Shown here: positions 32,229 through 63,621 of the stretch, one piece after another
Layout of the letters: each line of letters starts with the position of its first letter
How positions within the stretch are numbered: position 1 is the stretch's first letter
Assembly: GCF_053078305.1 (NCBI RefSeq)
Contig: NZ_CP166879.1
Length of the DNA stretch: 64,000 nt
Direction: 5' to 3' (one strand)
The notes under the pieces: model-generated
Seen by the model: the letters and a program-made list of their open reading frames with translations, nothing else
Database searches by the model: none
Told to the model about the DNA's origin: nothing
Translations under genes and position numbers: made by a program

Positions 32229-32419
32229 TATCCGGCATCGGTGCACAACCGCCGGATGCGGCGTGAACGCCTTATCCGGCCTACCGATCCGGCACAGGTT
32301 TGTAGGCATGATAAGACGCGCCAGCGTCGCATCAGGCATCCGCGCACAATTGCCGGATGCGGCACAAGTTTGTAGGCATGATAAGACGCGCTAGCGTCGC
32401 ATCAGGCATCCGCGCACAA
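32229..32419. repeat. REP/BIME cluster
   Basis: Three REP-like units (gccggatgcggcgtgaacgccttatccggcctac and tgtaggcatgataagacgcg...cgtcgcatcaggcatc, the latter twice). Confidence 0.8.
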
Positions 32420-32917
32420 TTATGAAATGATACGCTCCCCGGCACTAAAATCCGTTATGTTACCCGCCCAATCAATGGGATATAACCCTCGCGCCACATC
32501 GCGATGGAACGTTGAGAATGGCCAATCACTCACTTGCTTTACCCAGCCATGTTTCACTGGATTTATATAAATATAATCAACATGATGCCGATAATCTTTT
32601 GTATTACGGATGGCATGCTCCCAAAAACGCGGTTGCCAGATATTTTTCAATCCGCAAGCATGGGTGAACTGCTTTTTAATCTCTCTCCAGCGCGAGGAAA
32701 AATCATCATCGCCTTCAGGTAATGTCCATATGCAATGCATATGCTCTGGCAAAACGACCCAAGCGTTGATTTCAAAAGGTCTGTCTCGCTTAACTTTAAT
32801 AATAGCGTTACGGAGCATCTGGAACTGAGCGGTCAGAAGGTGGCTTCGACGATTTCGTAGGTTAACCGTGAAAAACCAGCTTCCCCCTTTGATGTAATAA
32901 CGACGATATTCAGACAT
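32420..32917 (-). CDS. rayT: REP-associated tyrosine transposase
   Basis: 165 aa ORF flanked on both sides by REP clusters. Confidence 0.85.
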   Translation of the reverse strand: MSEYRRYYIKGGSWFFTVNLRNRRSHLLTAQFQMLRNAIIKVKRDRPFEINAWVVLPEHMHCIWTLPEGDDDFSSRWREIKKQFTHACGLKNIWQPRFWEHAIRNTKDYRHHVDYIYINPVKHGWVKQVSDWPFSTFHRDVARGLYPIDWAGNITDFSAGERIIS

Positions 32918-33004
32918 GGCGACTCCTTTTTCTCAACGGTAAGAAGAAAAGGAAAGGTCGGCAATGAGGTGATGGAATAACAGGAAAGCGGCTCGCAAAA
33001 ACGC

Positions 33005-33096
33005 ACAGATTTGTAGGCATGATAAGACGCGCCAGCGTCGCATCAGGCATCTGCGTACAACTGCCGGATGCGGCGTGAATGCCTTATCCGTCCTAC
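33005..33096. repeat. REP/BIME cluster
   Basis: tgtaggcatgataagacgcgccagcgtcgcatcaggcat...gccggatgcggcgtgaatgccttatccg. Confidence 0.8.
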
Positions 33097-33842
33097 AAAA
33101 TCGTCTCCTCCGTCAAAATCCGGCGCGCGCCTAAAAAATGATCCTGCCAGAAAGGTTCAGCTAACCGACTTACCCGAATGGTTTCCCCGGTGCGCGGTGA
33201 CTCAATAAACTGACCGTCGCCCAGATACACCCCCATATGGTCGGCAATCTCGCGGCTGTGGATATGGAAAAACAGCAAATCTCCCCGGCGCAGGTCGTTA
33301 TTCGCCACAATCGTTGCCCGATGGTAGTGATACATCTCATTAGCCGTACGCGGGAGCTTCGCCTCGAGGATCTTGTTGTAGGCATAAAAAACCAACCCGC
33401 TACAGTCGAAGCCTTTATCGGGCCGCGTGCCGCCCCAGACGTAAGGCTTGCCAAGCTGCTGCTCCAGGCGGTGAATCGCCACTTCGGTGATGTTATGCAG
33501 GTGATCGCTGCTTAAAAAGTGGTTGTTTTCCGCCAGCGCCTGCCAGCGTCTGTCACTCGCCTTGAGCGGCGCAGGAAACCATTCTGGATGCTGTTTTATC
33601 TGCTCCCGGTTGTGCTGGCGTAGCGCCCTTCTGCTTTCGGCATTGCCTTCCACAATATAGCTGGCCTGTTTTTTCAGATGGGTTTGGTACTGTTTTAATA
33701 AACGCGCACGGTTTTGCATCCGCTGGCGAGCGGCGTAGCTGAAAGAGATATGTGATGTGGTGGCGCTGGCAAATGAAGAAAACGGCAAACAAATCAACAG
33801 TAATCCCGACAATACAAAGGATGGAATCGACGGCAAGGACAT
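33093..33842 (-). CDS. yafL: NlpC/P60-family peptidase YafL
   Basis: Start taken at MSLPSIPSFVLSGLLLICLPF (signal peptide), 249 aa; contains CSGLVFY (NlpC/P60 Cys region). Confidence 0.85.
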   Translation of the reverse strand: MSLPSIPSFVLSGLLLICLPFSSFASATTSHISFSYAARQRMQNRARLLKQYQTHLKKQASYIVEGNAESRRALRQHNREQIKQHPEWFPAPLKASDRRWQALAENNHFLSSDHLHNITEVAIHRLEQQLGKPYVWGGTRPDKGFDCSGLVFYAYNKILEAKLPRTANEMYHYHRATIVANNDLRRGDLLFFHIHSREIADHMGVYLGDGQFIESPRTGETIRVSRLAEPFWQDHFLGARRILTEETIL

Positions 33843-36227: not shown

Positions 36228-36291
36228 GGGTAACCTCCACAACAGCGGGAGCGCATGGCCCCCGGCGAAGATTGATTTAAGAATTTTCAGG

Positions 36292-36428
36292 TCGGATGCG
36301 GCGTGAACGCATTATTCGGCCTACGGTTCGCGTACAGATTTGTAGGCATGATAAGACGCGTCAGCGTCGCATCAGGCATCGGTGCACAATTGCCGGATGC
36401 GGCGTAAACGTCTTATCCGGCCTACGCC
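36292..36428. repeat. REP/BIME cluster
   Basis: Same REP consensus units as at 32229-32419. Confidence 0.8.
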
Positions 36429-36432
36429 AGAC

Positions 36433-41556: not shown

Positions 41557-42693
41557 TTACGAAAGCCCGCACCCCGCAAGGACTGACGCGAGGTAGTTTC
41601 TGTCCATGGCTGCTTTTCTCATCTTACGTCTTAGCCCTGCCTTGAATACCTTATCATTCGTCAAAATATTAATAGTGATATGCCTTATCCCTGAAAATAA
41701 TTCTGCTGCATTTCCTCTTCTTATTCTGCAGTCGTCTTCATTCATTATCACGTCCAGGCGCCAGTGCAGCTTATTTTCCACGTGCCAGTGATTCCGGATC
41801 GCTGTGGCGAACTTCTCTGCAGTTAAATCAGCAGAGCTGATATAATATCTGACCGTCATTTCGGGCTCTTTCTTTTGTTCTGCTATTATTGACCGAAAGG
41901 AGACTGCCATGCATAATTTTTTTAGTCCTTTCCATTCAAACGTGAAATCAATAAGTTCATCAGGGACATCGCAAACAATATGAAGACGGGTTTCTTCTCT
42001 GCCGTGACTCTTTTCACTTATTTCGTAACTGTCATGCTTTGGATTATTTAATTCTTTCAGCGGGAATTTTTCCTCAAAGGCTTTATTTAGTCGCCCCTGA
42101 TTTCCCTTTACAGCGAATAAATAATCACCTCCCTGTTTTTGTATCTTTTCTGCAATATCTTTCTGGCAACCCATCGCATCAGTTGTGATGATTTTTCCTT
42201 TAATATCCATCATGTTAAGAAGTTCAGGAATAGCTGTAATCTCATTGGATTTCTCATCCGTCTTGATCTGCCCGAGGACCAGACTGTGCATAGTTGAGAA
42301 CGCACTAATGACATGAATCGCTCCCCTGCAGCGACTCTTGTCATAAGAGTGCCGGAGCGTTGTTCCATCAATTGCAATAACGTCTTTATCATTTGAGGAA
42401 TGGCGGTCACGCATTCAGTTAATAAAGCACTCGTGAAATTTTGTAGGACTGATACAGGATACAACTCTGGCAATGGTATCGTGAACAGGAATACCATTTT
42501 CAAAATCACCATATTGCTTCAAAAAATCGAGATATGTTTCACCAAAATCCTCTATATCTTCCCAACCCTCTGCACCAGAAATGACGGCACAAATAGTCAA
42601 CAGTAGAATATCTGACAATTTATGTTCCACTTTCCAGGCTTGTCTGTAATCGGGGATAATAGAAATATGTTCCATCAACTTTTTAAGTTCCAT
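41557..42693 (-). pseudogene. ISAs1-family (H-repeat-associated) transposase with in-frame TGA
   Basis: ORFs 42415..42693 (92 aa) and 41557..42414 (285 aa) are in the same frame, separated only by TGA at 42417-42415 (...[16 protein letters not shown]...). Confidence 0.7.
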
Positions 42694-47184: not shown

Positions 47185-48828
47185 TTACCTCTTATTACCT
47201 GTAGGTGTTTCAGTATTCTGAGAATCAACTTCATCTTCAGTAAATGCTTTTCCAGCTACCGCTGGCATATCATCATCGCAATTCTTATAATAATTATCCA
47301 GTTGTTTTCTAAGGCAGGCTCTGCTGCATCTTGATTCCGGGAATGTTCGTTCAAATCCATCCAGGGCAATTTCTTTGGCATCTTCGTAATCAATTTTATC
47401 TTTATCGCTGAACCAGCCACTTTTCTTATAAGCTTTGATATCTTTGATCATCTCATCATGCATTTTGCCATGCGTTCCGTTTCCATTATTTGTGCCCTCT
47501 ACACAAACTGTCGGTGCCCCGCCTTTCGAATAACCACTGCAATGTCCTTTAGCCATTTCATCAGGAATAAGATGGTGGCCTGTCTGTCCGGGACAGCACC
47601 CTTTTCCAGTTTCGATACTCTTTTTGGCTCCGGTCTTATTATAATCAACGAGAAGGCATCGTCTTGCACGCGTACAGGGATTTATTCTCGCCAGCGCCCC
47701 CATTCCTGTTGCCATCATTTGAGATGGCGTCATATTTTTTAGCGTATTTTCCAGTTCAGCTTTGGCCTGTTTGACTAAAGATAAAATATCTTTTATCTCA
47801 TCTAATTTTTTATACGCTTCAATACCTAACTTGGCTGTATCATAAGCTGTACCAATTGCATCACAGACGTTCCATATTGTTGCAATTGTCTCGGTTACAA
47901 CTGCTCCAACGCCAGCAGCCGTAGCACCTATCGTACCCACGGCCCACCTTCCAGCCGCGTGTGCTGCTAGTTTTTCTGCTTTATGCAGAGCAGCAGTTTG
48001 TGCTTTATCAATAATTTCTTGTTTTAGTTGCTCAAGCATTGGCTCTATTAGTGAAGCCACTTTTTTATTAAAATCCTCCGTCAGTTCTTTCAATAATTTG
48101 TTATACTCCTCCAGGCCAAAACGTGGCTTAATCCACAAACCAGTACAATGAGAAAAAATCCATTCATTCTCCGGAGTTTTTAGTTTAGCGTATGTATTTC
48201 TGACTTTATCATCCAGCGTTTCCAGTTTCCCACCAATTTCTTTACCCATTAATTTCATGAAGTTTTTATTTTTTACATGATTCCTTCTGTTTTCCTCTTT
48301 CTTTTTTTCATCTTCATCATCATTTTTGTTATCTTCATCCGGTTTACATGCCTTCCTTATCCGATCTTCTTCCTTTTTACACTGTACAGGCATATCAAGA
48401 GTATCCTTATATGTGCCTGTAATAGTATTTCCTGGCTCCGAACCATGATTGTGCGTCATTAAATCTTCATGGCGTGCCACACACTTCCCTTCGAATTTTA
48501 CATTTGGCGACCATGATTTAAAGTAGGCTTTTCCTTTAATGACGCCGGTAATTACACCTTTGGGTTGGGATTGTGTAGCGGGTTCATCTCCGGTACTGGT
48601 TGAAAAAAAGGAAATATCTTCTTTAGCCACCATCGAATTGCATATGAATACGGTTATGGTTCCGTCCTTCATCGTTGAGGCATATGCAGTATTTGGATAA
48701 GGTACCACTATCGGGCCAGCCGGAGGAGAAGGCGGTGTCCAGCACGGATCGGGAAACACCGCTTTTGACACGCCGTCCGATGCCTTGGAGCTTGCCTCCC
48801 GGCTATTGATATAAACTTGAGTTTCCAT
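47185..48828 (-). CDS. T6SS effector: N-terminal DUF4150 (PAAR-like) domain, C-terminal HNH/EndoVII-fold GHH nuclease toxin domain
   Basis: 547 aa; N-terminal ...DPCWTPPSPPAGPIVVPYPNTAYAS...; Lys/Glu/Asp-rich linker; C-terminal CCPGQTGHHLIPDE. Confidence 0.7.
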   Translation of the reverse strand: METQVYINSREASSKASDGVSKAVFPDPCWTPPSPPAGPIVVPYPNTAYASTMKDGTITVFICNSMVAKEDISFFSTSTGDEPATQSQPKGVITGVIKGKAYFKSWSPNVKFEGKCVARHEDLMTHNHGSEPGNTITGTYKDTLDMPVQCKKEEDRIRKACKPDEDNKNDDEDEKKKEENRRNHVKNKNFMKLMGKEIGGKLETLDDKVRNTYAKLKTPENEWIFSHCTGLWIKPRFGLEEYNKLLKELTEDFNKKVASLIEPMLEQLKQEIIDKAQTAALHKAEKLAAHAAGRWAVGTIGATAAGVGAVVTETIATIWNVCDAIGTAYDTAKLGIEAYKKLDEIKDILSLVKQAKAELENTLKNMTPSQMMATGMGALARINPCTRARRCLLVDYNKTGAKKSIETGKGCCPGQTGHHLIPDEMAKGHCSGYSKGGAPTVCVEGTNNGNGTHGKMHDEMIKDIKAYKKSGWFSDKDKIDYEDAKEIALDGFERTFPESRCSRACLRKQLDNYYKNCDDDMPAVAGKAFTEDEVDSQNTETPTGNKR

Positions 48829-48995
48829 ATTAGATATTCATCTTTCTTATCGTAATTTCCCGTGGATACGGCAATCAGTATATTTATGAATTATTTATTA
48901 CCGGCATAGTTATAAATAAAATACTTAAATCAATACACAACACAAAACAACAAACCAATCTTTATGTACTTTCTTAATGAAGAAAGAAATGACTA

Positions 48996-49505: not shown

Positions 49506-50699
49506 CTACAGCATAACTTCACATTTCGTTGTTATATTGCGTTTAGAATTTTTCATTATATCATTAGCTTCTATAGCAATAGGCCAGCAATGTCTTTCCA
49601 GAACAATCGTGTTGTCCACTGCCGACATTATTGTTGATGAAGGGTCATTAGTAATTCCACCATCATATGGGACATTTATCTTATTATCCATTGTTCCATC
49701 TGGTTTATAGTATGCAACTGTTTCTCCACCTGCTGGATCATAAGCATATTCATCAGGTAAACCAAAGCAATGCCCGAACTCATGGGCATATATCCAATCA
49801 CGAGTTGAACCAGATACATTCATCTCGAATCCAGTAACACCTTCTCTTGGAAATTTTTTGTGAATATTCATTAAATAATGTTCGTTTGATTTTACCCATA
49901 AAATCTTAAATCGAACAGGTAGCTCAATATCTCCACAAATAGCATCTTTTAGTTTCAATTTGAATTTATTATTCCAGTATTTACTTACCCCTTTGAGCAT
50001 TTTCGCTTTTGCATTTTTTATGTTTTTTTTACTCACACCTGCACCACCCACAGTTTTAAATCTTACCGTCACTATAACTTTTCTATCTTTTATTATATTA
50101 ATATTTAATTTAAATCTTCTTTCAATGAGATAATTATGAGAAAGCCCATTAGAATCAAAGGCATCCGCATAACGCTTTGTAATGTTAACACTAACTTCTT
50201 TTTCGTAATTATCTTGCCAGCATAGCATTTTCAAGACGTTATCCCATATTCTATTCCCAACAGATATAGGCTCTGATAAATAATAGAATAAATCTGTATT
50301 TCCTGGCTGAGAACCGTGGTTGTGTGACATTAAATCTTCATGACGTGCAACGCATTTCCCTTCAAACTTTACATTTGGCGACCATGTCCTGAAGTAAGCT
50401 TTTCCTTTAATTACCCCGGTTATTACGCCTTTTGGCTGTGACTGCGTGGCTGGCTCATCTCCTGTACTGGTTGAAAAACAGGAAACATCTTCCTTTGCCA
50501 CCATCGAGTTACAAACAAATACGGTCGTTGTACCGTCTTTCAACGTTGAGGCATAGGCTGTGTTAGGATAAGGAACCACGATGGGACCCGCAGGAGGAGA
50601 TGGTGGCGTCCAGCAAGGATCAGGAAATGCAGCTTTAGATACACCATCAGATGCCTTTGAACAAGCCTCCCGGTTGTTGATATAAACACGCGTATCCAT
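49506..50699 (-). CDS. T6SS effector: N-terminal DUF4150 (PAAR-like) domain, C-terminal HExxH zinc-metallopeptidase-like toxin domain
   Basis: Start taken at MDTRVYINNRE; first about 130 aa nearly identical to the 47185..48828 effector; C-terminal YAHEFGHCFGLPDEY. Confidence 0.7.
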   Translation of the reverse strand: MDTRVYINNREACSKASDGVSKAAFPDPCWTPPSPPAGPIVVPYPNTAYASTLKDGTTTVFVCNSMVAKEDVSCFSTSTGDEPATQSQPKGVITGVIKGKAYFRTWSPNVKFEGKCVARHEDLMSHNHGSQPGNTDLFYYLSEPISVGNRIWDNVLKMLCWQDNYEKEVSVNITKRYADAFDSNGLSHNYLIERRFKLNINIIKDRKVIVTVRFKTVGGAGVSKKNIKNAKAKMLKGVSKYWNNKFKLKLKDAICGDIELPVRFKILWVKSNEHYLMNIHKKFPREGVTGFEMNVSGSTRDWIYAHEFGHCFGLPDEYAYDPAGGETVAYYKPDGTMDNKINVPYDGGITNDPSSTIMSAVDNTIVLERHCWPIAIEANDIMKNSKRNITTKCEVML

Positions 50700-50703
50700 A
50701 TTT

Positions 50704-51722: not shown

Positions 51723-52865
51723 CTATGCTCCTGTTTCTGTTACAGGTTTATTCGTTAATTCTGGATTATTGTTTTTTTCTCCGCATCCACCGCAGGTTTC
51801 CCCTCCCCCCGCAGCTCGTTGCTGCCACCAGGTTTTACCCACAGGCCCTATAGCAACAGTGTGAATTTCCTGAATCCGTCGCTTAAGAGGTATACTTGTA
51901 CGCCAGACTACACTAAAACGCTCCTCATTGGGTTCAAAATAAAGCGTATCAACAACCGGCATTAATTCATGAGCTTCATAATCCATCGTTAAAATTCTAA
52001 CGGGCATTTGGTTTATATGAGGTAGCTGAAATTCAATGACTGAGCGTTCTTTATGCATATTTATCAACATAACTTTTTCACCACCCTGCGGATATGCGGT
52101 CTGTTGATCAGGTGGTGCGCTCTGAAAATAACGCTCATCAAAATCCTCCGGAAGAAAGGGGGAGACTTCTGCACGCCATCGTTCGTCATATGTTCCGGCA
52201 TACTGTAAACGTAACGGATGGTTTCTTGGCCGGGCGGAAAATGCTCCCGGCTCCGGATGTGATTCTGGACGTGTCACGCTATCTTGTGGTAGTTCAACCA
52301 ATGGCAGACGTGAGTTAATGAATACGGTTTCATCCCGATGATTGCCATAACCGATTCCAACAATATTGCTGGAAAATATTTCCCGATTCTCATTTCCCTG
52401 TACATCTTTCCAGACATACTCTCCACCAAAGGCATTACCATAATGTAATGAGACTGACTGTATGAACTCTGTATCAGATATAATCCAGTCTGACGTCTTT
52501 TTCTGCCAGTAGCGCGGACCAAATACCTTTAGACTCTTATCGACTTGACCTACAATTGCTCTTGATTCTGTCTGATAATTATTCCCCTCGCTTACAAAAT
52601 AAGTTGTTGCGTTAAATAAAACATCACATTTCTCTTTATACCTGACATAATCGGCCTCATATAATACAGCAGAGAATCCAGGTTCACCCACATATATGTC
52701 ACTTTCTACCAATGGCTGAGGTGGTAATAGTGGGCGAGGGCGTCGATTGTTTACGGGGATCTGATAAGTTGCTTTAATTACAACTACAAGATAATCTTTC
52801 CCATTTTTATCTGTTGCAGTGAAAACATCAGCTATCGTGTGTTTTGCAGCATTAAAAATTTCCAT
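51723..52865 (-). CDS. Putative DUF2169-family T6SS adaptor
   Basis: 380 aa ORF between vgrG and the DUF4150 effectors, the canonical position of DUF2169 adaptors; assignment is positional. Confidence 0.45.
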   Translation of the reverse strand: MEIFNAAKHTIADVFTATDKNGKDYLVVVIKATYQIPVNNRRPRPLLPPQPLVESDIYVGEPGFSAVLYEADYVRYKEKCDVLFNATTYFVSEGNNYQTESRAIVGQVDKSLKVFGPRYWQKKTSDWIISDTEFIQSVSLHYGNAFGGEYVWKDVQGNENREIFSSNIVGIGYGNHRDETVFINSRLPLVELPQDSVTRPESHPEPGAFSARPRNHPLRLQYAGTYDERWRAEVSPFLPEDFDERYFQSAPPDQQTAYPQGGEKVMLINMHKERSVIEFQLPHINQMPVRILTMDYEAHELMPVVDTLYFEPNEERFSVVWRTSIPLKRRIQEIHTVAIGPVGKTWWQQRAAGGGETCGGCGEKNNNPELTNKPVTETGA

Positions 52866-52877: not shown

Positions 52878-53420
52878 TCAGTTTACCTGCACAGACCCAC
52901 CTTTTAACCTGTGTGTTGCCTGCGCCTGACTGTCAATATAAAGCGCGCGTATCTGAAGCAGTCCATCCGCCGATAAAACAATTTTTGACTCGCCGCACTG
53001 GAGCACTAATTCTTGTTTCGCTGTCAAAACAACTCGCTCTGTATTTAGTTCGTCTTCAGTACATTTTTTCGTCTCTGAATGATATCTTTCTGTTAAATTC
53101 TCCGGAAGTATTCCGGTCACTACCGGATGAGAATAATTGCCAGAGAGAAACTGCACAGTGCATAATCGTCCGTTATACTCCGTAGTTACAGTTCCCAGAC
53201 CCAAAGCTGCAACAGGTTTATCTTCATGAGGACACTGAATCAATATTTCTCCAGAGTCTTTGACACTGACAATTCTGCCGACAACCAACACAGGGATATC
53301 ACTGACATGCGCCTGGGATTTACTAGCCTGATGAGATAAAATATTTTCCAGCAAATGTGTTGTACTGGTCAGTTCCTCTTCTGGCTGTGGGACGTATATA
53401 TCATGCAGTTCCTTTATCAT
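52878..53420 (-). CDS. Hypothetical protein (180 aa) translationally coupled to vgrG
   Basis: Start overlaps the vgrG stop at 53420. Confidence 0.4.
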   Translation of the reverse strand: MIKELHDIYVPQPEEELTSTTHLLENILSHQASKSQAHVSDIPVLVVGRIVSVKDSGEILIQCPHEDKPVAALGLGTVTTEYNGRLCTVQFLSGNYSHPVVTGILPENLTERYHSETKKCTEDELNTERVVLTAKQELVLQCGESKIVLSADGLLQIRALYIDSQAQATHRLKGGSVQVN

Positions 53421-55408
53421 TAGTTCTCCAGAATTTTCTTCCCTTTCATATTCATATCACCATCAGCTTTATAAAACTGATCACCTGTTGTTCCCAACGA
53501 CAATTCATGTCCATTTATAGTGATGTAGCCATCTTTATCCATGCGCAAAGTACTCTTACCACATACAAACTCGATGGAATCGCCTACTGTCACTGTAAGA
53601 GTTTCCCCTACAGTAACAGACTGAGATTTATCCACAGCCTCGGTATCATTCCCTGTTACCTTACTATCCTGATCATTACCTACGCTCTTGCTACGATTGT
53701 TCGTGACAGTCAGAGATTGATCATTTCCTACGCTTACATTTTGATCGTGAGTTACAGTGACGGTCTGATCATGTCCCCCGGCATTCTCCTTACCCACCGT
53801 CACCGTCTGGCCCAGCCCAACGGTAATACTCTGGTTGTTACCGATGGTTTCGGTATGGTCCACTTTCACATCAGTAGTGCGGTTGTTCAGCACTTCCGTA
53901 TCCATGTTCTTCTGTGCATGGATATAGACCTGTTCACCGCCCGTGGCGTCTTCAAACCGCAGCTCGTTAAATCCGCTTCCTTTATAGGTCTTCGACCGTA
54001 TCGTCATCTGCGTCTTCGTCCCCGGCAGACTCCCCGGCGAACGGTTGTCCTCATGGTAGGTCCGCCCCATGATTATCGGCTGGTCCGGGTCGCCGTTCAG
54101 GAAGTCTACAATCACTTCCTGGCCGATGCGCGGTATCGCCAGGTTACCGAACCCCGGCCCCGCCCACGCCTGCGACACCCTCACCCAGCATGAACTCGCC
54201 TCCGTCATCCCGTGATAACGGTCCCAGTGAAACTTCACCCGTACCCGGCCATGTTCATCGCAGAAGATTTCCTCTCCCGCAGGCCCGGTGACAATGGCAC
54301 TCTGCGGGCCGTCCACCTTCGGTTTGCTTTGCACCCGTGGACGCCACGTCCGGTCCGCCGGTATCACCTCTAACTGATTGCCCAGCGTGGTTCCTCTCCC
54401 CTGGCTGCCGTGCAGCGCCTGCGGCTGGCTTCCTGACAGTATGCTCTGTACCACCTGCCATTCACGGTTCAGCATCTTCTGCGGATGCCCCGTCAGCGTA
54501 AACCGCGTTCCCGGCCACAGCCGCGGCGAATTACTCTGCCCTGTGGCCTTTTCCGCATCACTGCGCAGGCTGTCCATCTGGTACAACGTGAAATCCTTGC
54601 CGTGCTGTTCATCCTTGAACCTTCCCGGATAATCAAATATTTCATACTGCGCCAGCTGTCCGTTCAGGTTCTCACCCTGCTGCTCATACATCCCCGGCCA
54701 GTCCGGCACCTTAAACGTGTAATCCTGGCTCTGCACCGACGACGGGCGGACATGCGCCTCATAACGGAACATACTGACACACTCTGTCTCCGCTCCTGCC
54801 GATGTGTCCGGGTTAAACGGAAGCTCTCCCGCCTGTGACAGCCCCGCCACATCGTCGCACAGCGTCAGCTTCTGCTCCGGACTGTCCGCCGCAAACCGCT
54901 CAAAGAAGAAAATCCCCTCCTCCGCCCACAGCCGCGCCAGAAACGCCAGGTCGCTTTCCCCGTACTGCACACAGAACTCCCGCGCCGGATGGTCCTCATA
55001 AAACAGCGGCGTCCACTCCGTGACGCCGTTCTCGTTCAGTAACGTGGCCGATATCGTCCGGATATCCTGCTGCTGGAAGATACGGAAGTTCTGCCGCAGC
55101 CCACACCGCCATAACGGCGGCTGGATACACAGGTGATAACGCATCTGCCAGCCGTTATTCTCCTGCATCCCAAACCCCGCCACCACGCCGGTGACATAAC
55201 GCAGCGGGATGACGCCCTGCCAGATGGTCAGCGTCGCCTTCTTCTCCAGCAGCATCTCCGCCGTCTGCATAAAAGAGTCGCTGGCAACATCCACACTCAT
55301 CACAAACGGATATGACCCGCCCTGGATTAACCGGAAGCTCACCACTGCAAAGGTGTCCGGCTCCTGGCCGTCAACCTCCAGCGTAAAGCGCAGACCTTTT
55401 AAGGACAT
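53420..55408 (-). CDS. vgrG: T6SS spike protein VgrG (paralog 2)
   Basis: 662 aa, MSLKGLRFTLEVDGQEPDTFAVVSFRL...; gp27/gp5-like body and C-terminal beta-helix repeats (TVGxxQSxTV). Confidence 0.9.
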   Translation of the reverse strand: MSLKGLRFTLEVDGQEPDTFAVVSFRLIQGGSYPFVMSVDVASDSFMQTAEMLLEKKATLTIWQGVIPLRYVTGVVAGFGMQENNGWQMRYHLCIQPPLWRCGLRQNFRIFQQQDIRTISATLLNENGVTEWTPLFYEDHPAREFCVQYGESDLAFLARLWAEEGIFFFERFAADSPEQKLTLCDDVAGLSQAGELPFNPDTSAGAETECVSMFRYEAHVRPSSVQSQDYTFKVPDWPGMYEQQGENLNGQLAQYEIFDYPGRFKDEQHGKDFTLYQMDSLRSDAEKATGQSNSPRLWPGTRFTLTGHPQKMLNREWQVVQSILSGSQPQALHGSQGRGTTLGNQLEVIPADRTWRPRVQSKPKVDGPQSAIVTGPAGEEIFCDEHGRVRVKFHWDRYHGMTEASSCWVRVSQAWAGPGFGNLAIPRIGQEVIVDFLNGDPDQPIIMGRTYHEDNRSPGSLPGTKTQMTIRSKTYKGSGFNELRFEDATGGEQVYIHAQKNMDTEVLNNRTTDVKVDHTETIGNNQSITVGLGQTVTVGKENAGGHDQTVTVTHDQNVSVGNDQSLTVTNNRSKSVGNDQDSKVTGNDTEAVDKSQSVTVGETLTVTVGDSIEFVCGKSTLRMDKDGYITINGHELSLGTTGDQFYKADGDMNMKGKKILEN

Positions 55409-55425
55409 AATGACCTCCCTGAAAA
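53910..55425. repeat. About 1.5 kb direct repeat (vgrG 5' region plus leader), copy 2; partner at 61392-62899
   Basis: Near-identical DNA across the two vgrG 5' regions; antisense track ORFs 54485..54838 and 61959..62312 are almost identical as a result. Confidence 0.8.
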
Positions 55426-55450
55426 AATCATAAGTTTATTTTTGTATCAG

Positions 55451-55717
55451 TTAGTTATGACGTACAATAAAATGACTGGCTATCAACGTTGCTCCGCAGG
55501 TTGTTTTATCACCATCATGTGCAGCCTGTTTTCCATTAACAGAAAAACCCTGTCCAGATGCTATAATATTCGTCGTTCCATGCCCCTCTATCGGGCAGAT
55601 TACTTGGTCACCATCACAAGCTACAGGCTGACCTTCATGCAAAAAATCCGCACTGGCACTAATAACAATGCCTCCATGAGATGTTTTATCACCGAGAGTG
55701 ATTAATGATTTCATCAC
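55451..55717 (-). CDS. PAAR-domain protein
   Basis: 88 aa; ...GQPVACDGDQVICPIEGHGTT... Confidence 0.75.
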   Translation of the reverse strand: MMKSLITLGDKTSHGGIVISASADFLHEGQPVACDGDQVICPIEGHGTTNIIASGQGFSVNGKQAAHDGDKTTCGATLIASHFIVRHN

Positions 55718-55769
55718 CTTACCCTTTAATATAATGTATTATGTACGATTTTATTTTTCTGTGCATTTT

Positions 55770-56600
55770 TTAAGGTGTTAATTGCCCAGAGTTATCACCC
55801 TCATAAGATTCTTTTGGTACTGAATGTAACTGCACTTTCCCATATCGACAAACAATCCACCAGATAAAAGATGATATAATGGAGAACGGAAATATAAAAA
55901 CCACATAAAGAGGCCATAGATATACTTTCATCGTTCTTTCACCTTCATCACAAGGCCAGGAACAAAATGGCCATGGCTTATAATGCTCTATGATCTCGGC
56001 AGGCGTCAGGTAAATTTTTTTTTGGCGGAAGTCGTCCCAGTCATACTTTTCAGGTATTCGTAGGTTATCCGAACCTTTATGTATAAAATCTTTTATATAC
56101 TCAACAATAGGCATAAAATTATAATGTCCGTCAAATTCAATTTTATGCTCAACTTTCTGACCAAATCGATCATGCGAATAGAGTAATAAATAAGTTGTTT
56201 TAAGACCTCCGAGGAAATCCAAATCATTTATATTACAAATATATTCTTCATCATTCAAATAAAAATATATTCTTTTTGTTTTTCTATTTAAAACGATATC
56301 AGAATTTCGTTTTATGTTATGTATAAAGCCACGAGTCAAAAACATAAAAAACATTGGGAGTAACATCATCAGCAAGCTATCTATAAGCTTCCTAAAGATG
56401 CTAACTGAATCGGTTGTAGAAAACATATGATATATAATTATTATTGCTGCAACAGACCATGTGAATGAAAAAAAAAGCGTCATAACTCCATATGTCACGC
56501 TATCATTTACAGTAGCTGTTCTTAACGTAAGGCAATGTCGACTTAATGAAATAAACTGCAATCTCATGTCATAACAATTTACTGTTTTTTTGTTCATCAC
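55770..56600 (-). CDS. Putative membrane immunity protein for the upstream effector
   Basis: 276 aa with hydrophobic helices (VMTLFFSFTWSVAAIIIIYHMF, LLMMLLPMFFMFLT); directly downstream of the large effector. Confidence 0.4.
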   Translation of the reverse strand: MMNKKTVNCYDMRLQFISLSRHCLTLRTATVNDSVTYGVMTLFFSFTWSVAAIIIIYHMFSTTDSVSIFRKLIDSLLMMLLPMFFMFLTRGFIHNIKRNSDIVLNRKTKRIYFYLNDEEYICNINDLDFLGGLKTTYLLLYSHDRFGQKVEHKIEFDGHYNFMPIVEYIKDFIHKGSDNLRIPEKYDWDDFRQKKIYLTPAEIIEHYKPWPFCSWPCDEGERTMKVYLWPLYVVFIFPFSIISSFIWWIVCRYGKVQLHSVPKESYEGDNSGQLTP

Positions 56601-56621
56601 ATTCTCGCCATTCTTAATTAT

Positions 56622-59576
56622 TCAAAATGATGGTGGCATACTTTTATTAACCACACCCATATATTGATTAAAATCAAATTCCAGTTTATACTCACAAAGA
56701 ATAGATACATCGTTCATAAAGCCCGTGTTTGGCCTGTATCTAAAACTAAGAGCAACGTCTTCAACATGATGTTTATCCACCTGCTTGCTAAAACGAAGTA
56801 AAACCCCCCCGTTTTCTGGAAACATTCTTTCAATAGTAAAGCCACTAGTTATTTCTCTGATATCACTAACATCAGGTACAAAATCTGGAAGATAAAGAAC
56901 AAACTGTGCCGGCCCGATATAGCAAGTAGAAATGGTATCTCCAACTAATTTCCATTGAGTATAAACATCTGGATGTGTGAGATAACTTGCGAGAGTAGAG
57001 TCAACTAATATAGGTTTATAGCGAACCTTAAAATAATCAACAATAGCTTCATTAATATTTTGAAATTGTTTCATATCTTCGTCAGTGCTGTTTTCATCCC
57101 TGATAAACGCACCAAAAATAGTATGATTCACCCAACGTTCAAATGAGGTATGATTATCTTCATCAGCTTCCAGTCCTAACCATATACCAACAAGAATTAG
57201 CACTAATCCGACGACAACTATCCATCCCACAATAGGTATAGCTCCTGCTGAAAGCGCCCCAGTAACAGCACTGGGTAAAAAACTCGCAGTGACAGAAGGA
57301 AATGCAACCATTAAAGACCCCATTGCACCTGCAATTGCTGATTCAAAACGTAAACCTTTACCATCCGTATCTGATACCCACCATTTAGACAAATCAGAAA
57401 ATAAAGAAAAACCGATTGCAGCAATCCCCAAATACTTACCGAACGCTGCTGACGCAATTTTTTTTAAAATCCATCTTTTGTAATATTCACCAGCCCATAC
57501 AACTCCTTTATCAATCGAATTTCTTTTCATGAAATTTTCAACAGATACTAACAAAGCATTACACCCAGCCAAAGCGCCTGAAAGTGCAGCAATGAAATTT
57601 AATACTTTTCCACATGATATTTTATCATCTGTTATTTCTTTTTTTAGATCAACATATGCAGAAAATAAATAAATCATACCAAATAGTAATAAGCCAGCGG
57701 ATGCGGCAGTTACGCTGACAGAAGTAGATAATTTACCAGAAACTAATTTTTCGGTTGCTCTTGCACTCTGTAAATCTTGCTCCACTACTACAATCAAATC
57801 TCTTTTCCCTCGCCCACTAAAATAAGTAATTTTAGCTTTATCCAGTTCTACCATACCGCTTTCAACCAAAATCTTAAACTGACTGGTAACAGGATTACGT
57901 TCAAATAAATCATTGGTAATAGTATATCGTGCCCTTAATATACCCAATAATTGTCTAATATCCCCACCATCTGCAGCGGCATTTATCTTAGCCAATGCAG
58001 AACCTTTTAATTCAGGGCGACCTTTTATATTTTTACTTTTTAACAAATAAGCAACAATATTAGTCGTAAGAAGGTCAGTTCCAGCGGTAGCTCGCATAAA
58101 AACATCTTTCTTTGATATTTCCTGAATCACGTTATCAGCAGCCCCAAGCCATCCACCTACAGAATTTGCATCTTTTCCAAAAGGGCTATAGGCCAATAAT
58201 GCCTTATAGACAGGACTGTTTGTATCATTAAGCCAAACGTTTAATAATGCTGTTCGAGTATCTTTATCCTCGCGTCCTGGAATAGGATTACCAACACCAT
58301 TAATCATCATAGCAATAGACATTTCCAAACTATATGCTGAAATTTTTACATTTCGGTCATAAAGCATTAATGCACTGGCTACTGATAGACGGTTATTTTG
58401 ACAAGTTTCCTCTGCACTGCTTAGCCAAGCACAATGATCGATTGTAGCTAACTCTGCCTGTCGCAGCACGATTTCTGCATTCTCTTGAATGATTTTCTTT
58501 TCTTCTAAAAAAGCTAAGAATTTCTCCTGATTTATACGTTTAGCAAACCTAGCACCGCTAGCTGAACGAGCTTCATCTATTAACTCATAGAAATGACAGA
58601 CATCGCGATCGCCATCAACTAATGAAGTATCCCCTTTACTTGCACTGAGACTAATTAACGTATTGAATATGAGCTGGCATATAATATCTTCTTCATAAAA
58701 TCTCTTACTTTTAATGTGTAGTTTACTAACATCTAATCGCATAGCTTTAGGTAATATGTAATCCTCTGATTCAGATTTTATATCATTTATCTGATGTCTA
58801 TATAATTCTGCTATTGCAGATACATCAATAGCAATCCCTTCGGCATCTAGCAGGGCAATTACAGCTGGAACTTTAGGTTGATAATTTGGAAAATATGATT
58901 TTAATGATTTCAATTCATTGACATTCGAAACAAAAGGCTCTTCCTCGCTCCATCGCATATCCATTTTTTTTTCTTCAGGTTTATACTCCTCTACCCACTG
59001 TTCCAGAGCATCTATCGGAAGAATATTTTTTTGTATAGAATAATCATGGTTGCAATTAACTAACTCTGCTACATCCACAGCCTGCATAAACCGTTGGCGA
59101 GATGCCAGGTTAGATAAGAGATCATTTACCCTTGTTTGAGTCCACAGATGGGAACTATAACCAATCCATACCTCTGTTGCATCTGTTTCAATCCAGACGT
59201 TTGGCATCTGCTTACCACTTGCATAGGCATCACGCGAGTTATATTGCTCAAGATATTGAATTTGCAACTCCTGAAACAATCCATTCCCTTGATGTTCGTG
59301 TATAATTAACTTTGTATATTTTGGTGATGACAGATAAGTATAAACATATCCTACACGAAGAGCACGCAGTGTATATTTAGAGCAATTCAGCGTAGCAACA
59401 CAGGTAAACCCTTCTTCAAGATTATATTCACAACCTTCCCATGAAAATTTTTGTGAATCATCAAGACATTTAGGAATAATGCCATAGCGTATCGGAAGTA
59501 GAGGAATACGTCCTATCTCTTGTGTGCATGGTTTTGCGGATATAATATTTTCATTCGCCATAAATACACTCTCCAA
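56622..59576 (-). CDS. Large putative T6SS membrane-targeting (pore-forming, VasX-like architecture) effector
   Basis: 984 aa; C-terminal third has several long hydrophobic helices (e.g. GWIVVVGLVLILVGIWLGL); sits between an adaptor-like gene and a membrane immunity candidate. Confidence 0.45.
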   Translation of the reverse strand: MESVFMANENIISAKPCTQEIGRIPLLPIRYGIIPKCLDDSQKFSWEGCEYNLEEGFTCVATLNCSKYTLRALRVGYVYTYLSSPKYTKLIIHEHQGNGLFQELQIQYLEQYNSRDAYASGKQMPNVWIETDATEVWIGYSSHLWTQTRVNDLLSNLASRQRFMQAVDVAELVNCNHDYSIQKNILPIDALEQWVEEYKPEEKKMDMRWSEEEPFVSNVNELKSLKSYFPNYQPKVPAVIALLDAEGIAIDVSAIAELYRHQINDIKSESEDYILPKAMRLDVSKLHIKSKRFYEEDIICQLIFNTLISLSASKGDTSLVDGDRDVCHFYELIDEARSASGARFAKRINQEKFLAFLEEKKIIQENAEIVLRQAELATIDHCAWLSSAEETCQNNRLSVASALMLYDRNVKISAYSLEMSIAMMINGVGNPIPGREDKDTRTALLNVWLNDTNSPVYKALLAYSPFGKDANSVGGWLGAADNVIQEISKKDVFMRATAGTDLLTTNIVAYLLKSKNIKGRPELKGSALAKINAAADGGDIRQLLGILRARYTITNDLFERNPVTSQFKILVESGMVELDKAKITYFSGRGKRDLIVVVEQDLQSARATEKLVSGKLSTSVSVTAASAGLLLFGMIYLFSAYVDLKKEITDDKISCGKVLNFIAALSGALAGCNALLVSVENFMKRNSIDKGVVWAGEYYKRWILKKIASAAFGKYLGIAAIGFSLFSDLSKWWVSDTDGKGLRFESAIAGAMGSLMVAFPSVTASFLPSAVTGALSAGAIPIVGWIVVVGLVLILVGIWLGLEADEDNHTSFERWVNHTIFGAFIRDENSTDEDMKQFQNINEAIVDYFKVRYKPILVDSTLASYLTHPDVYTQWKLVGDTISTCYIGPAQFVLYLPDFVPDVSDIREITSGFTIERMFPENGGVLLRFSKQVDKHHVEDVALSFRYRPNTGFMNDVSILCEYKLEFDFNQYMGVVNKSMPPSF

Positions 59577-60765
59577 TCACCACCCCAACTTGCTTTTTTA
59601 TCATAGGCGAGGGGGAATTTAATTCTAATACTTCCCATGCTTGTTCCGGTGAGCTTTGACAAACCAGTAGAAAATGCTCTCGGATGTGGTACAAAGAGAG
59701 GTTGTCTTTCATAGAGGGAATAAAATTTAATACTACATCCACTGCATCACCAAAATTCTTCCCTTGGTGTTTTTGTAATGTTAGCCAATCTCTCACTAGT
59801 AACTCATTAAAATAATTGCTATTAAGAAAACTTTTTTTGGAGGTTCTTATTTTCATTATTGCATCAAGACGATTTTCTGGTGAAATAGTAACTTCAGCTA
59901 GGATTGAGCAATATAATTCTATCTGCTCATCAGATTCAGATGAATCATCCAAAAAAACACTAACTATTGTTGTTATCATGTTGTATTTATAAATACCCAG
60001 CAACCTAAATATATCATGTATTTTTTGACATTGTTCCGTTCGTCGAGTTAAAGTTTTTTTTGCATGATTTATTAACTCTTCCAATGACAACTGAAATCTA
60101 TATTCTTCCAGAATTGAAATATATTTAAGTTCTCTGTGTGTTAGTTTGAAAAACGACAAATCCTTTAAACTAGGCTTATCCACAACTTGATTATATAAGT
60201 ACCAAGAAACCTTGTTATATAAATTTTCGCACCAGATAATTGAGTTTATACTACCAAGTAAACGCTGTCTTTTACTTGCGATCAGACATCCAATAATAAG
60301 ACTTAAATTATTCGGATACCAGTTTAAATGTATGACATTTGACTTGTGAGTATAGAGTGTTGAGAATTTCGAAAGATGCCAGCAAATTTCCTTTAATGAT
60401 GAAGAACTTATAATTATCAATCCACCGTTACACTTCGCCCATTGTGAAACAAAATGCCTTACAATATCATGACTATGGCTTACATTTATTAATAGCGGTC
60501 CTTTCTCTCGTTTGTAATCATATTTGGTATCTTCCCATAACCATTGATAATAAATAAATGGCTCTATTTCTTTTAGCTGTGTCAGTAATCCGAGATTTGG
60601 TGGTATTGTATTATCATCAGGTTGTATTACCTTCCTAGTACAGCGCTCAATGTTTATAGGATGTAATAATAAGTAAATAGCATCATCATCATTTTGGATT
60701 GATTGAAGGTCAAAATCATCCGTACTTACTTTTATATTATGTCGGGCCAAAAGCGTGGCAAACAT
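59551..60765 (-). CDS. Putative T6SS adaptor/chaperone (DUF4123-like by position)
   Basis: 404 aa ORF; start overlaps the vgrG stop; vgrG-adaptor-effector-immunity order. Confidence 0.4.
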   Translation of the reverse strand: MFATLLARHNIKVSTDDFDLQSIQNDDDAIYLLLHPINIERCTRKVIQPDDNTIPPNLGLLTQLKEIEPFIYYQWLWEDTKYDYKREKGPLLINVSHSHDIVRHFVSQWAKCNGGLIIISSSSLKEICWHLSKFSTLYTHKSNVIHLNWYPNNLSLIIGCLIASKRQRLLGSINSIIWCENLYNKVSWYLYNQVVDKPSLKDLSFFKLTHRELKYISILEEYRFQLSLEELINHAKKTLTRRTEQCQKIHDIFRLLGIYKYNMITTIVSVFLDDSSESDEQIELYCSILAEVTISPENRLDAIMKIRTSKKSFLNSNYFNELLVRDWLTLQKHQGKNFGDAVDVVLNFIPSMKDNLSLYHIREHFLLVCQSSPEQAWEVLELNSPSPMIKKQVGVVIGECIYGE

Positions 60766-62882
60766 TATGATTTACCTTTATCACATGGACAATCTTCTAG
60801 TGGACAACTTCCATCCGGTTTCATAGCACACAAATCATCAAAAGGTTTACCTTCATCGGGATCAACAACAGATTGACTGATTGCAGGAGAGTCGCCAGTA
60901 CTGGCAGAGACATTACCTTTCAGGTAAATATTTCCTGCTTCAATAGTTACCCCCCCACCGTCAATGGTTATTTTCCCTCCAGGACCACGTAACACCATCC
61001 TCTGTCCAGCATCCAGCAATATTTCCGCACTCTGCTGTTTTATTCTTTCCCCCGCATCAAGAAATGATTCTCCTTTCACCTGATGATCATAACTTCCGCC
61101 AGTTTGCTGACTGTAATTTGCCGCAATTTGTTCCTTGCGGTGATTACCGACGGTTTCGATATGATCTTTACCAATCTCCACTTTATGATCTCGGGTGATA
61201 ACCAGATAGTCGTCCTGCGTGATTGCTGTACGGCGATCATGACCAATAAGCCAAGTTTCGTCATGCCCAGTAGTATGTTTTTTATCATTTGTAATTTTAA
61301 TAACTTCATCGTGACCAACCACTTCACTACGATCATTGCCTATAGTGGTTGCTTCATTGTGATTGATAACATTGATTTGATCTCTTTCGGCATGGATATA
61401 CACCTGCTCTTTGCCGGTCGCATCGTCAAATCGCAACTCGTTAAATCCGCTCCCCTTATAGGTCTTCGACCGTATCGTCATCTGCGTCTTCGTCCCCGGC
61501 AGACTCCCCGGCGAACGGTTGTCCTCATGGTATGTCCGGCCCATGATTATCGGCTGGTCCGGGTCTCCGTTCAGGAAGTCAACAATCACCTCCTGACCCA
61601 CCCGCGGTATCGCCAGGTTACCAAACCCCGGCCCCGCCCACGCCTGCGACACCCTTACCCAGCATGAACTCGCCTCCGTTGCCGGGTTATACCTGTCCCA
61701 GTGGAACTTCACCCGTACCCGGCCATGCTCGTCGCAGAAAATCTCTTCTCCCGCAGGCCCGGTGACAATGGCGCTCTGTGGCCCGTCCACCTTCGGTTTG
61801 CTTTGCACCCGTGGACGCCACGTCCGGTCCGCCGGTATCACCTCTAACTGATTTCCCAGCGTGGTTCCCTTTCCCTGGCTGCCGTGCAGCGCCTGCGGCT
61901 GGCTTCCTGACAGTATGCTCTGTACCACCTGCCATTCACGGTTCAGCATCTTCTGCGGATGCCTCGTCAGCGTAAACCGCGTTCCCGGCCACAGCCTCGG
62001 CGAATTACTCTGCCCTGTGGCCTTTTCCGCATCACTGCGCAGGCTGTCCATCTGGTACAGCGTGAAATCCTTGCCGTGCTGCTCGTCCTTGAACCTTCCC
62101 GGATAATCAAATATCTCATACTGCTCCAGCTGTCCGTTCAGGTTCTCACCCTGCTGCTCATACATCCCCGGCCAGTCCGGCACCTTAAACGTGTAATCCT
62201 GGCTCTGTACCGACGACGGGCGGACATACGCCTCATAACGGAACATACTGACACACTCTGTCTCCGCTCCTGCCGATGTGTCCGGGTTAAACGGAAGCTC
62301 TCCCGCCTGTGACAGCCCCGCCACATCGTCGCACAGCGTCAGCTTCTGCTCCGGACTGTCCGCCGCAAACCGCTCAAAGAAGAAAATTCCCTCCTCCGCC
62401 CACAGCCGCGCCAGAAACGCCAGGTCCGACTCCCCGTACTGCACACAGAACTCCCGCGCCGGATGGTCCTCATAAAACAGCGGCGTCCACTCCGTGACGC
62501 CGTTCTCGTTCAGTAACGTGGCCGATATCGTCCGGATATCCTGCTGCTGGAAGATACGGAAGTTCTGCCGCAGCCCGCACCGCCATAACGGCGGCTCAAT
62601 ACGCAGGTGATAACGCATCTGCCAGCCATTGTTCTCCTGCATGCCAAAACCCGCCACCACGCCGGTGACATAACGCAGCGGGATGACGCCCTGCCAGATG
62701 GCCAGCGTCGCCTTCTTCTCCAGCAGCATCTCCGCCGTCTGCATAAAAGAGTCGCTGGCAACATCCACACTCATCACAAACGGATATGACTGGCTCTGGA
62801 TTAACCGGAAGCTCACCACTGCAAAGGTGTCCGGCTCCTGGCCGTCAACCTCCAGCGTAAAGCGAAGACCTTTTAAGGACAT
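60765..62882 (-). CDS. vgrG: T6SS spike protein VgrG (paralog 1) with distinct C-terminal extension
   Basis: 705 aa; first about 497 aa nearly identical to the 53420..55408 paralog, then a different Cys-rich C-terminus. Confidence 0.9.
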   Translation of the reverse strand: MSLKGLRFTLEVDGQEPDTFAVVSFRLIQSQSYPFVMSVDVASDSFMQTAEMLLEKKATLAIWQGVIPLRYVTGVVAGFGMQENNGWQMRYHLRIEPPLWRCGLRQNFRIFQQQDIRTISATLLNENGVTEWTPLFYEDHPAREFCVQYGESDLAFLARLWAEEGIFFFERFAADSPEQKLTLCDDVAGLSQAGELPFNPDTSAGAETECVSMFRYEAYVRPSSVQSQDYTFKVPDWPGMYEQQGENLNGQLEQYEIFDYPGRFKDEQHGKDFTLYQMDSLRSDAEKATGQSNSPRLWPGTRFTLTRHPQKMLNREWQVVQSILSGSQPQALHGSQGKGTTLGNQLEVIPADRTWRPRVQSKPKVDGPQSAIVTGPAGEEIFCDEHGRVRVKFHWDRYNPATEASSCWVRVSQAWAGPGFGNLAIPRVGQEVIVDFLNGDPDQPIIMGRTYHEDNRSPGSLPGTKTQMTIRSKTYKGSGFNELRFDDATGKEQVYIHAERDQINVINHNEATTIGNDRSEVVGHDEVIKITNDKKHTTGHDETWLIGHDRRTAITQDDYLVITRDHKVEIGKDHIETVGNHRKEQIAANYSQQTGGSYDHQVKGESFLDAGERIKQQSAEILLDAGQRMVLRGPGGKITIDGGGVTIEAGNIYLKGNVSASTGDSPAISQSVVDPDEGKPFDDLCAMKPDGSCPLEDCPCDKGKS

Positions 62883-63062
62883 AATGACCTCCCTGATTTA
62901 TTCACGGACCAAATGATTCTCACCATGCAGCAAAGGGTGCCAGTGCAGCGTTACACTCATCTTTACATTTTCAGGTACGCTACCGCCCGGGTTTCCGGCA
63001 TCCGCCATCTCCCTCATGAAAGCGTAACTCCTTACTGACACTCATTTTTTACACGTACAAAA

Positions 63063-63102: not shown

Positions 63103-63621
63103 TTATGCTTCCAGCGGTGCACGCCAGTCATCGGCACCAGAAGTACCGGATTTGATGTGCTCCCACTCAACCTTACGGTATGCCAGTGATACTGCGAGCA
63201 ATTGCGTAAACTCACGCTGTGCAGGGTCCTGGCAGTGCGGCATGTGCAGGTTCATGTCCACAATCGTCGCGTCAGTAAGACGTGTGGTGAAGTAGTGCTC
63301 CTGCTTGCCTTCAACTGAAGTACGCCACCAGTGCAGCTCCACTTTCGGCAGCATTTCACCGGAGGCCAGCGCGTTGTACAGCAGCGGAACGGCTTTGTTC
63401 AGCGCCACGGTGAAAATGAACGGTTTGTGCGCGCGCTGCCCGGAAGGTTGACCAGACTGTGGATCGGTTGGAACAGTAACGTTATGCAGAAACTCCTGCA
63501 CCAGCATTTCATCTTCGTGTCCCTGCACGTAGATATTGCCGACAGAATCTGCGGTGAAAGCACCGGCAGTGATGTTCCCCTGGGTCTGACCTGTAATTGA
63601 AATGTAACATGGGGTTGGCAT
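63103..63621 (-). CDS. hcp: T6SS tube protein Hcp
   Basis: 172 aa, MPTPCYISITGQTQGNITAGAFTADS... Confidence 0.9.
   Translation of the reverse strand: MPTPCYISITGQTQGNITAGAFTADSVGNIYVQGHEDEMLVQEFLHNVTVPTDPQSGQPSGQRAHKPFIFTVALNKAVPLLYNALASGEMLPKVELHWWRTSVEGKQEHYFTTRLTDATIVDMNLHMPHCQDPAQREFTQLLAVSLAYRKVEWEHIKSGTSGADDWRAPLEA

Follow-up and report, generated by a model that had tools for sequence, protein, structure and literature searches.

The locus analysed here raises the question of how two vgrG genes of one type VI secretion system (T6SS) came to share some 1.5 kb of DNA at their 5' ends, and what this shared block does to the genes that lie between its two copies. Both genes stand on a stretch of 64,000 nucleotides (nt) from NCBI RefSeq assembly GCF_053078305.1, contig NZ_CP166879.1, which is called the window in the following and whose first letter is position 1. 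Exact-protein look-ups and annotated genomes place the locus in the variable region of the Escherichia coli T6SS-1, between tssB/hcp and yafV-ivy-fadE. We consider it highly probable that the repeat is the conserved 5' block of two T6SS-1 vgrG alleles, which were brought into tandem through the stacking of effector modules, and that it serves as a homology arm for RecA-type recombination.

The repeat and the origin of its copies

Comparison of the window with itself by blastn returned one ungapped direct repeat of 1507 bp (53916-55422 against 61390-62896) with 72 mismatches, 95.2% identity and E = 0. The two copies have the same orientation, both on the minus strand, and are spaced 7474 bp apart. 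The original prediction, made from the letters of the window alone, had placed about 1.5 kb of shared vgrG 5' DNA at 53910-55425 and 61392-62899, which is off by 2-6 bp. Its term 'near-identical' suits the long ungapped share and overstates the degree of likeness, since 95% is ordinary divergence between E. coli alleles and does not speak of a fresh duplication. Each copy consists of a leader of 14 nt, TCAGGGAGGTCATT, which includes the ribosome-binding site (about 15 bp of leader had been expected), followed by vgrG codons 1 to about 497. Beyond both repeat ends, the in-register identity goes down to a background of 22-40% within 50 bp. A separate repeat scan caught only the first 300 nt of the 1507 bp. 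The two copies and the DNA between them, with their G+C (GC) contents, are as follows.

61390..62896, minus strand: repeat copy A, leader and codons 1 to about 497 of vgrG-A; 59.0% GC
53916..55422, minus strand: repeat copy B, leader and codons 1 to about 497 of vgrG-B; 59.5% GC
55423..61389, minus strand: unique segment between the copies, 5967 bp, 35.9% GC, with the vgrG-A C-terminus and the genes for adaptor, toxin, immunity candidate and PAAR protein

The unique segment of 5967 bp together with one repeat copy makes up the unit of 7474 bp that is absent from single-vgrG strains.

Both genes encode VgrG proteins, as had been proposed: the domains Phage_GPD (PF05954, 247-249 bits), Phage_base_V (PF04717, 53-55 bits) and Gp5_trimer_C (PF22178, 106-113 bits) are found in each of them above the Pfam cut-offs. 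Residues 1 to about 497 of VgrG-A and VgrG-B match with 15 substitutions, and beyond them there is a weak similarity typical of beta-helix repeats. At the DNA level the shared block stops at about codon 497, inside the gp5 beta-helix, and the 3' parts of the two genes are unrelated, in agreement with the divergence of the C-termini that had been read from the sequence. Within the repeat, 62 codons differ between the copies (47 synonymous, 15 nonsynonymous), and this excess of synonymous changes points to purifying selection on the vgrG 5' block. Where each repeat ends on its 3' side there is a sharp step in GC content, from the 59% of the repeat down to 42-44% in the vgrG C-terminal parts and 33-37% in the cargo genes, so that the repeats form two GC-rich islands in a window whose remainder has 50%; this step suggests that the conserved and the variable parts of vgrG have different histories. 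The longest runs of exact identity between the copies measure 159, 146, 91, 88, 82, 77, 71 and 69 bp. Since efficient RecA-dependent recombination in E. coli requires a minimum of about 25-30 bp of uninterrupted identity, runs of up to 159 bp should enable the repeat to recombine homologously.

Collinear and ungapped copies, as well as conversion patches between the copies in the strains L012 and L031 (described below), would fit a recent tandem duplication of vgrG with later divergence of the 3' ends, or a similarity kept mainly by conversion within the genome (concerted evolution). However, in a comparison of the 5' blocks of 17 vgrG alleles from E. coli T6SS-1 loci, A and B are 95.5% identical, the median of all pairs is 95.6% (range 93.0-99.9%), and tandem pairs of other genomes are no closer to each other than A is to B (95.4-96.7%). 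The 3' parts and the cargo genes are moreover unrelated, with 36-44% GC against the 59% of the repeats, the A-type block is 99.9% identical to that of a vgrG with a third kind of C-terminus in strain ET350, and more than 10 assemblies keep the 72 differences that set the copies apart. An origin of this kind appears very improbable to us. The candidate of a recent duplication or strong concerted evolution was ruled out because the identity of A and B equals the between-allele median of the species.

The same alleles carry traces of exchange. The four-gamete test was failed by 44% of the informative site pairs, and in a permutation test similar to the pairwise homoplasy index (PHI) the incompatibility of neighbouring sites was below that of the permuted order (p <= 0.0005). 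Taken together with the A/B identity at the between-allele median, these results indicate that the 5' block represents a recombining, species-wide pool of alleles. The A-type block occurs with three different C-termini. Homology of the vgrG-B module (module B) with all other E. coli T6SS-1 loci begins at the 5' edge of the repeat, at window position 55422 or 55417, irrespective of whether the upstream gene is hcp or encodes a PAAR protein.

An assembler that mis-joins sequences or expands a repeat wrongly would also produce an apparent tandem, and a repeat of 1.5 kb whose exact runs reach 159 bp can indeed confuse short-read assemblers. Some contigs end in the repeat: the draft contig L015 stops 217 bp into copy B, and many VgrG cluster entries in databases are 'partial', cut at contig ends. 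The repeat is therefore an assembly hazard, as had been foreseen. That the tandem itself is such an artefact is nevertheless hardly conceivable, because it recurs at 99.9-100% identity in more than 10 independent NCBI assemblies, including the finished chromosomes CP057673.1 and CP057861.1, 72 fixed differences tell its copies apart, and neither of the two open reading frames (ORFs) is broken. Its recurrence across many independent assemblies was the ground on which an artefact was ruled out. The vgrG-A gene is intact in every tandem assembly checked.

The tandem was found in 0 of the 5,426 RefSeq complete E. coli genomes searched, and the unique insert of 5967 bp is absent from these genomes except for its last 1298 bp, which are present in ET350. 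The RefSeq complete genomes being without the insert, tandem carriers were located by exact-protein look-ups. The module of vgrG-A, which encodes a VasX-like toxin, can be found in two GenBank chromosomes, CP057673.1 and CP057861.1, as well as in dozens of draft assemblies; it is rare, and it is under-represented in the complete-genome set.

Recombinant forms in related strains

The loss of about 7.5 kb that had been predicted to follow from recombination between the copies has its counterpart in isolates in which exactly 7474 bp of the locus are missing and the single vgrG changes from A-type to B-type. E. coli ETEC6335 (from a pig in the Netherlands) covers a 17-kb query in two pieces that span 9527 bp, that is 17001 minus 7474, and its flanks agree with the window at all of the 1104 bp compared upstream and, downstream, at 99.915% over 12.9 kb. 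At the 72 positions where the repeat copies A and B differ (diagnostic sites), its single vgrG is A-type at sites 1-59 (59/59) and B-type at sites 60-72 (13/13), with two private changes. Strain A16 (from an otter in Mexico) has the same locus minus exactly 7474 bp, the same A/B pattern and a protein identical to that of ETEC6335 (WP_175087234.1). The vgrG of strain ES5 shares the switch point, and the chimeric VgrG protein is present on 21 contigs in a large collection, where VgrG-A is found on 16 contigs and VgrG-B on 57. In another single-vgrG form, L028 (GCA_014105095.1), the gene that comes right after hcp is a vgrG with the A state at site 1 and the B state at sites 2-72; on either side of it the sequence agrees with the window over 1104/1104 bp and at 99.967% over 9 kb, and five further places are similar. 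Both inferred junctions lie in runs of exact identity.

53982..54058 in copy B (61456-61532 in copy A), minus strand: crossover interval of ETEC6335, A16 and ES5, repeat positions 1365-1441, an exact run of 77 bp
55322..55390 in copy B (62796-62864 in copy A), minus strand: junction interval of the L028 form, repeat positions 33-101, an exact run of 69 bp

The B-type 5' block accompanies the B C-terminus in three other contexts, namely the window type, ET350/L029 and L028, which indicates that the A/B chimera is the derived state. A deletion between the repeat copies is the simplest reading of the ETEC6335 type. The L028 form might have come from another deletion, independent of the first, or might preserve the arrangement that preceded the insertion of module A. 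It could further be proposed that all single-vgrG loci, of the ETEC6335 as well as of the L028 type, are ancestral, that the window type was made by the insertion of module A and that no deletion between the repeats ever occurred. The pattern of L028, A at site 1 and then B, fits an ancestor that received hcp-proximal DNA together with module A, and stacking by insertion is the model proposed for Vibrio cholerae (PMC5361080). This proposal is opposed by the ETEC6335 chimera, whose 59 A-type and 13 B-type sites appear derived when the B-type block goes with the B C-terminus in three contexts; making the window type from this chimera would require a donor that already carried the A-B tandem, and the nearly identical flanks fit one recent step. 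We regard an insertion without any deletion as unlikely.

Exchange between the copies seems to have occurred in both directions as well. Over 13 kb, 13 substitutions and a 1-bp deletion separate L012 (GCA_958333685.1) from the window, and 10 of the 13 substitutions are A-state bases in copy B, at repeat positions 254-470 and 900-933; judged from this base pattern, the patches would be gene conversion from A into B. In L031 (CP057861.1) it is copy A that holds a B-type patch (sites 25-39, positions 837-1169), with two residues altered, as would be left by gene conversion from B into A. L012 has in addition a TTA-to-TAA stop at codon 27 of vgrG-B (window 55329), and its 1-bp deletion lies in the 276-aa gene (window 56476; aa, amino acids).

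Whole modules are displaced in other strains. ET350 (L022, NZ_CP100966.1; locus 1025-15301) has three tandem vgrGs of 652, 660 and 662 aa, each with its own module, so that the 5' block is present three times, and the draft strain L029 has two tandem vgrGs. Both keep the gene for a protein with three transmembrane (TM) segments, the PAAR gene and vgrG-B, and the vgrG-A C-terminus, the DUF4123 gene and the VasX gene are replaced by a module of vgrG (660 aa), DUF2169 and Tox-PAAR genes. The 5' block of the displacing vgrG in ET350 is A-type and 99.9% identical to copy A. It is in these two strains that an orphan-immunity arrangement is seen, the 3-TM gene being kept without its toxin; in the window itself both modules are intact. 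A different state is seen in L013, L031, L033, L034 and L036, where the VasX-like gene is split into ORFs of 216, 550 and 229 aa and the downstream gene of 275/276 aa is intact. The 216-aa fragment is present on 28 contigs. In these tandem strains the VasX-like toxin appears to be inactivated and the presumed immunity gene kept.

A model that joins these findings could be as follows. Two effector modules stacked downstream of hcp would have put two vgrG alleles in tandem, with a 5' block that extends over the ribosome-binding site and the parts for the gp27-like domain and the gp5 OB fold, and takes in the first turns of the beta-helix. Purifying selection on this structural part of the spike might keep the block about 95% identical among the alleles of the species, and the conserved block could then provide RecA-type homologous recombination with a homology arm that is carried along with the modules. 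Crossovers within the block would add, swap or delete whole modules, and non-reciprocal exchange would convert patches between the copies. Each VgrG C-terminus would load the products of the accessory, toxin and immunity genes encoded after it; the divergent C-termini presumably select the cargo, as published work on VgrG C-termini suggests.

Several points weigh against this model. All recombination events, the direction of each of them and the part of RecA-type homologous recombination in producing the recombinants were inferred by comparing genomes of natural isolates. The direction of the events is not proven, and a single-vgrG locus of the L028 type could precede the insertion of module A. 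At 0.43%, the upstream T6SS core diverges more strongly between a tandem strain and ETEC6335 than the flanks of the vgrG region do, so that a lateral replacement of the region is possible. There are no Chi sites at 40-64 kb, all 7 of the window being at 21-38 kb, and thus no pointer to a RecBCD hot spot. Finally, the DUF4123 and PRK06147-like assignments of two proteins of the locus lie under the Pfam cut-offs.

The tandem repeat might even represent a built-in and fairly frequent switch, by which subclones drop or, through reciprocal exchange, amplify the VasX toxin/immunity module. Single-vgrG forms with differing junctions and two-way conversion among close strains would be compatible with a high rate. 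We hold such a switch to be quite improbable; if it existed, clonal populations would be mixed in weaponry and susceptibility, akin to phase variation.

Genes of the two modules and their surroundings

In minus-strand order, hcp comes first, and module A then comprises vgrG-A and the genes for a DUF4123-like protein, a VasX_N toxin, a 3-TM protein and a PAAR protein. Module B follows with vgrG-B and the genes for a DUF6484, a DUF2169, a 337-aa, a DUF4150 toxin and a 149-aa protein. Downstream of module B lie a DUF4150-GHH2 nuclease toxin gene, further genes, an insertion sequence (IS) remnant and yafV. The genes are listed below.

63103..63621, minus strand: hcp, 172 aa; a 220-bp spacer, then vgrG-A downstream
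60765..62882, minus strand: vgrG-A, 705 aa; gp27-like, gp5 OB and gp5 beta-helix domains, own C-terminus from about residue 498
59551..60765, minus strand: putative DUF4123 adaptor, 404 aa; PF13503 at 22.6 bits against a Pfam cut-off of 25.8
56622..59561, minus strand: VasX-like toxin, 979 aa; VasX_N at 71.2 bits (cut-off 27), NCBI name 'toxin VasX'
55770..56600, minus strand: candidate immunity protein, 276 aa; three TM-like segments, no Pfam family
55451..55714, minus strand: PAAR protein, 87 aa; stop codon 42 nt upstream of the vgrG-B ATG
53420..55408, minus strand: vgrG-B, 662 aa; N-terminal 497 residues in common with VgrG-A, C-terminal beta-helix different
52878..53420, minus strand: DUF6484 protein, TvpC-like accessory, 180 aa; PF20093 at 30.3 bits (cut-off 27.6)
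51723..52865, minus strand: DUF2169 protein, TvpA-type chaperone of PAAR-like proteins, 380 aa; PF09937 at 253.8 bits
50704..51717, minus strand: 337-aa protein; weak ketoacyl-synthase-like match (19.7 against a cut-off of 20.8), placed where class II Tvp clusters have their PRK06147-like accessory gene
49506..50699, minus strand: DUF4150 (Tox-PAAR-like) protein; PF13665 at 96.6 bits, weak metallopeptidase-like C-terminus, 397 aa according to the ETEC6335 annotation

The adaptor, membrane effector, immunity and PAAR genes that had been proposed between the repeat copies can be recognized here as the DUF4123 adaptor (below cut-off), the VasX_N toxin, the 276-aa 3-TM immunity candidate and the PAAR gene. 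The PF13503 match of the 404-aa protein is graded 'faint' or 'weak' among the precomputed hits, and its position directly downstream of vgrG-A fits a DUF4123 protein. The VasX-like protein has hydrophobic segments at residues 615-793; the ORF listing extends its gene to a TTG at 59576, and likewise extends the start of the DUF4150 protein gene (49506..50699) to 50756. The retention of the 276-aa 3-TM protein where the toxin is lost or broken is suggestive, and only suggestive, of a role as immunity protein for the VasX-like toxin.

The gap of 42 nt between the PAAR gene and vgrG-B argues for a co-transcription of the two modules, as far as gene spacing can tell. A consensus scan for promoters and terminators between the modules was not enriched, with 32 promoter-like and 5 terminator-like sites where 23.8 and 8.2 were expected. 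Near the repeat, hairpins resembling terminators occur only within its own coding sequence: CGGCGTC...GACGCCG with a T-rich tail lies in the coding part of both copies (62481-62502 and 55007-55028, minus strand) and is probably a chance match, the region having fewer such sites than shuffled sequence.

A second direct repeat of 407 bp (48425-48831 against 50296-50702, 80.8% identity, 1871 bp apart) corresponds to the N-terminal Tox-PAAR-like (DUF4150) domains of two toxin genes, whose C-termini differ, one being weakly metallopeptidase-like and the other a GHH2 nuclease. The design of a conserved head and a variable toxin tail is thus met again one level below vgrG. At this spot, related strains have a truncated DUF4150 gene of 157 aa and then a separate GHH2 ORF.

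Identical loci in other genomes have the genes tssB, C, E, F, G, tagH, tssJ, K, L and H directly upstream of hcp; in such related loci the T6SS-1 core genes fall past the end of the window. Between the T6SS variable region and yafV there is a DDE_Tnp_1 transposase ORF of 285 aa (41557-42414), and the annotation of ETEC6335 has, as its counterpart, a pseudogene of an ISAs1-family transposase that is interrupted by an internal stop. Clusters of palindromes of the REP/BIME type (repetitive extragenic palindrome/bacterial interspersed mosaic element) at 32230-32430, 33000-33100 and 36290-36430 (GCCGGATGCGGCGTGAACGCCTTATCCGGCCTAC and variants) explain the short repeats of the self-comparison and are ordinary E. 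coli elements. A pair of segments at 14843-15215 and 15319-15691 (about 380 bp, 75.6% identity, 476 bp apart) overlaps the end of the ORF 13678-15132. The sole tRNA gene of the window is a tRNA-Thr (CGT) at 19246-19321 on the minus strand.

Significance and known systems

The vgrG locus offers a clean natural case of the rebuilding of a T6SS arsenal, in which modules would be stacked, swapped or dropped in one step. An arrangement of the parent type can be compared base by base with its likely products, namely the deletion-type chimera, the conversion tracts and the candidate immunity gene left as an orphan. Short-read assemblies and typing by presence of vgrG or effector genes can mislead at this locus, and the loss of the toxin/immunity pair should render a strain susceptible to attack by its relatives. 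Other bacteria have already provided the principle, and the current understanding is unchanged by our analysis. Our searches of the open-access literature gave no paper on this E. coli VasX module or on its tandem arrangement.

The E. coli Rhs elements and the CdiA-CT orphan arrays combine a GC-rich conserved core with AT-rich variable toxin tips and immunity genes, and repeated Rhs or CdiA cores are substrates of homologous recombination that rearranges or deletes the DNA between them. In contrast to vgrG, which encodes a spike with mostly separate cargo toxins, the conserved part and the toxin of Rhs and CdiA proteins form one polypeptide, and these belong to other protein families. The gene order of module B is that of the class II Tvp cluster PA0095-PA0099 of Pseudomonas aeruginosa (PMC13373197), with vgrG, DUF6484, DUF2169, PRK06147-like and DUF4150 PAAR-like effector genes. 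This likeness concerns the cargo of vgrG-B and not the repeat, and its PRK06147-like member rests here on a sub-threshold match.

In agrobacteria, a recombination hot spot has been described inside the COG3501 region of vgrG (Wu et al. 2021, PMC8546570). There, as in E. coli, the N-terminal part of vgrG is conserved and largely typical of the species. A crossover in this part replaces the C-terminal part and all genes downstream and switches between DUF4123 and DUF2169 adaptors (PMC8546570); here, the A-type block goes with three C-termini. Unlike the locus analysed here, the agrobacterial vgrG loci are mostly dispersed and not adjacent, and no description of an intralocus deletion or of patchy conversion between adjacent vgrG copies was found in that study (PMC8546570).

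A further parallel is the module exchange of V. cholerae, where vgrG genes share a conserved 5' region and differ in their 3' ends and cargo (Unterweger 2014; Kirchberger 2017, PMC5361080). In that species the conserved region has been reported as a recombination site for a sequential displacement that leaves orphan immunity genes (PMC5361080). Modules are gained via the conserved part and the displaced immunity genes become orphaned, which ET350 and L029 exhibit for the 3-TM gene and the PAAR gene. The cargo is similar as well, since the toxin of module A belongs to the VasX family and has, as in the V. cholerae aux-2 cluster, a putative partner resembling the DUF4123 protein VasW, though below the cut-off here. 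However, V. cholerae normally has one vgrG per cluster, with arrays of immunity genes. In E. coli, whole modules with their own vgrG are stacked, up to three in ET350, the conserved block thereby forms a direct repeat within the locus, and the products expected from deletion between its copies are seen.

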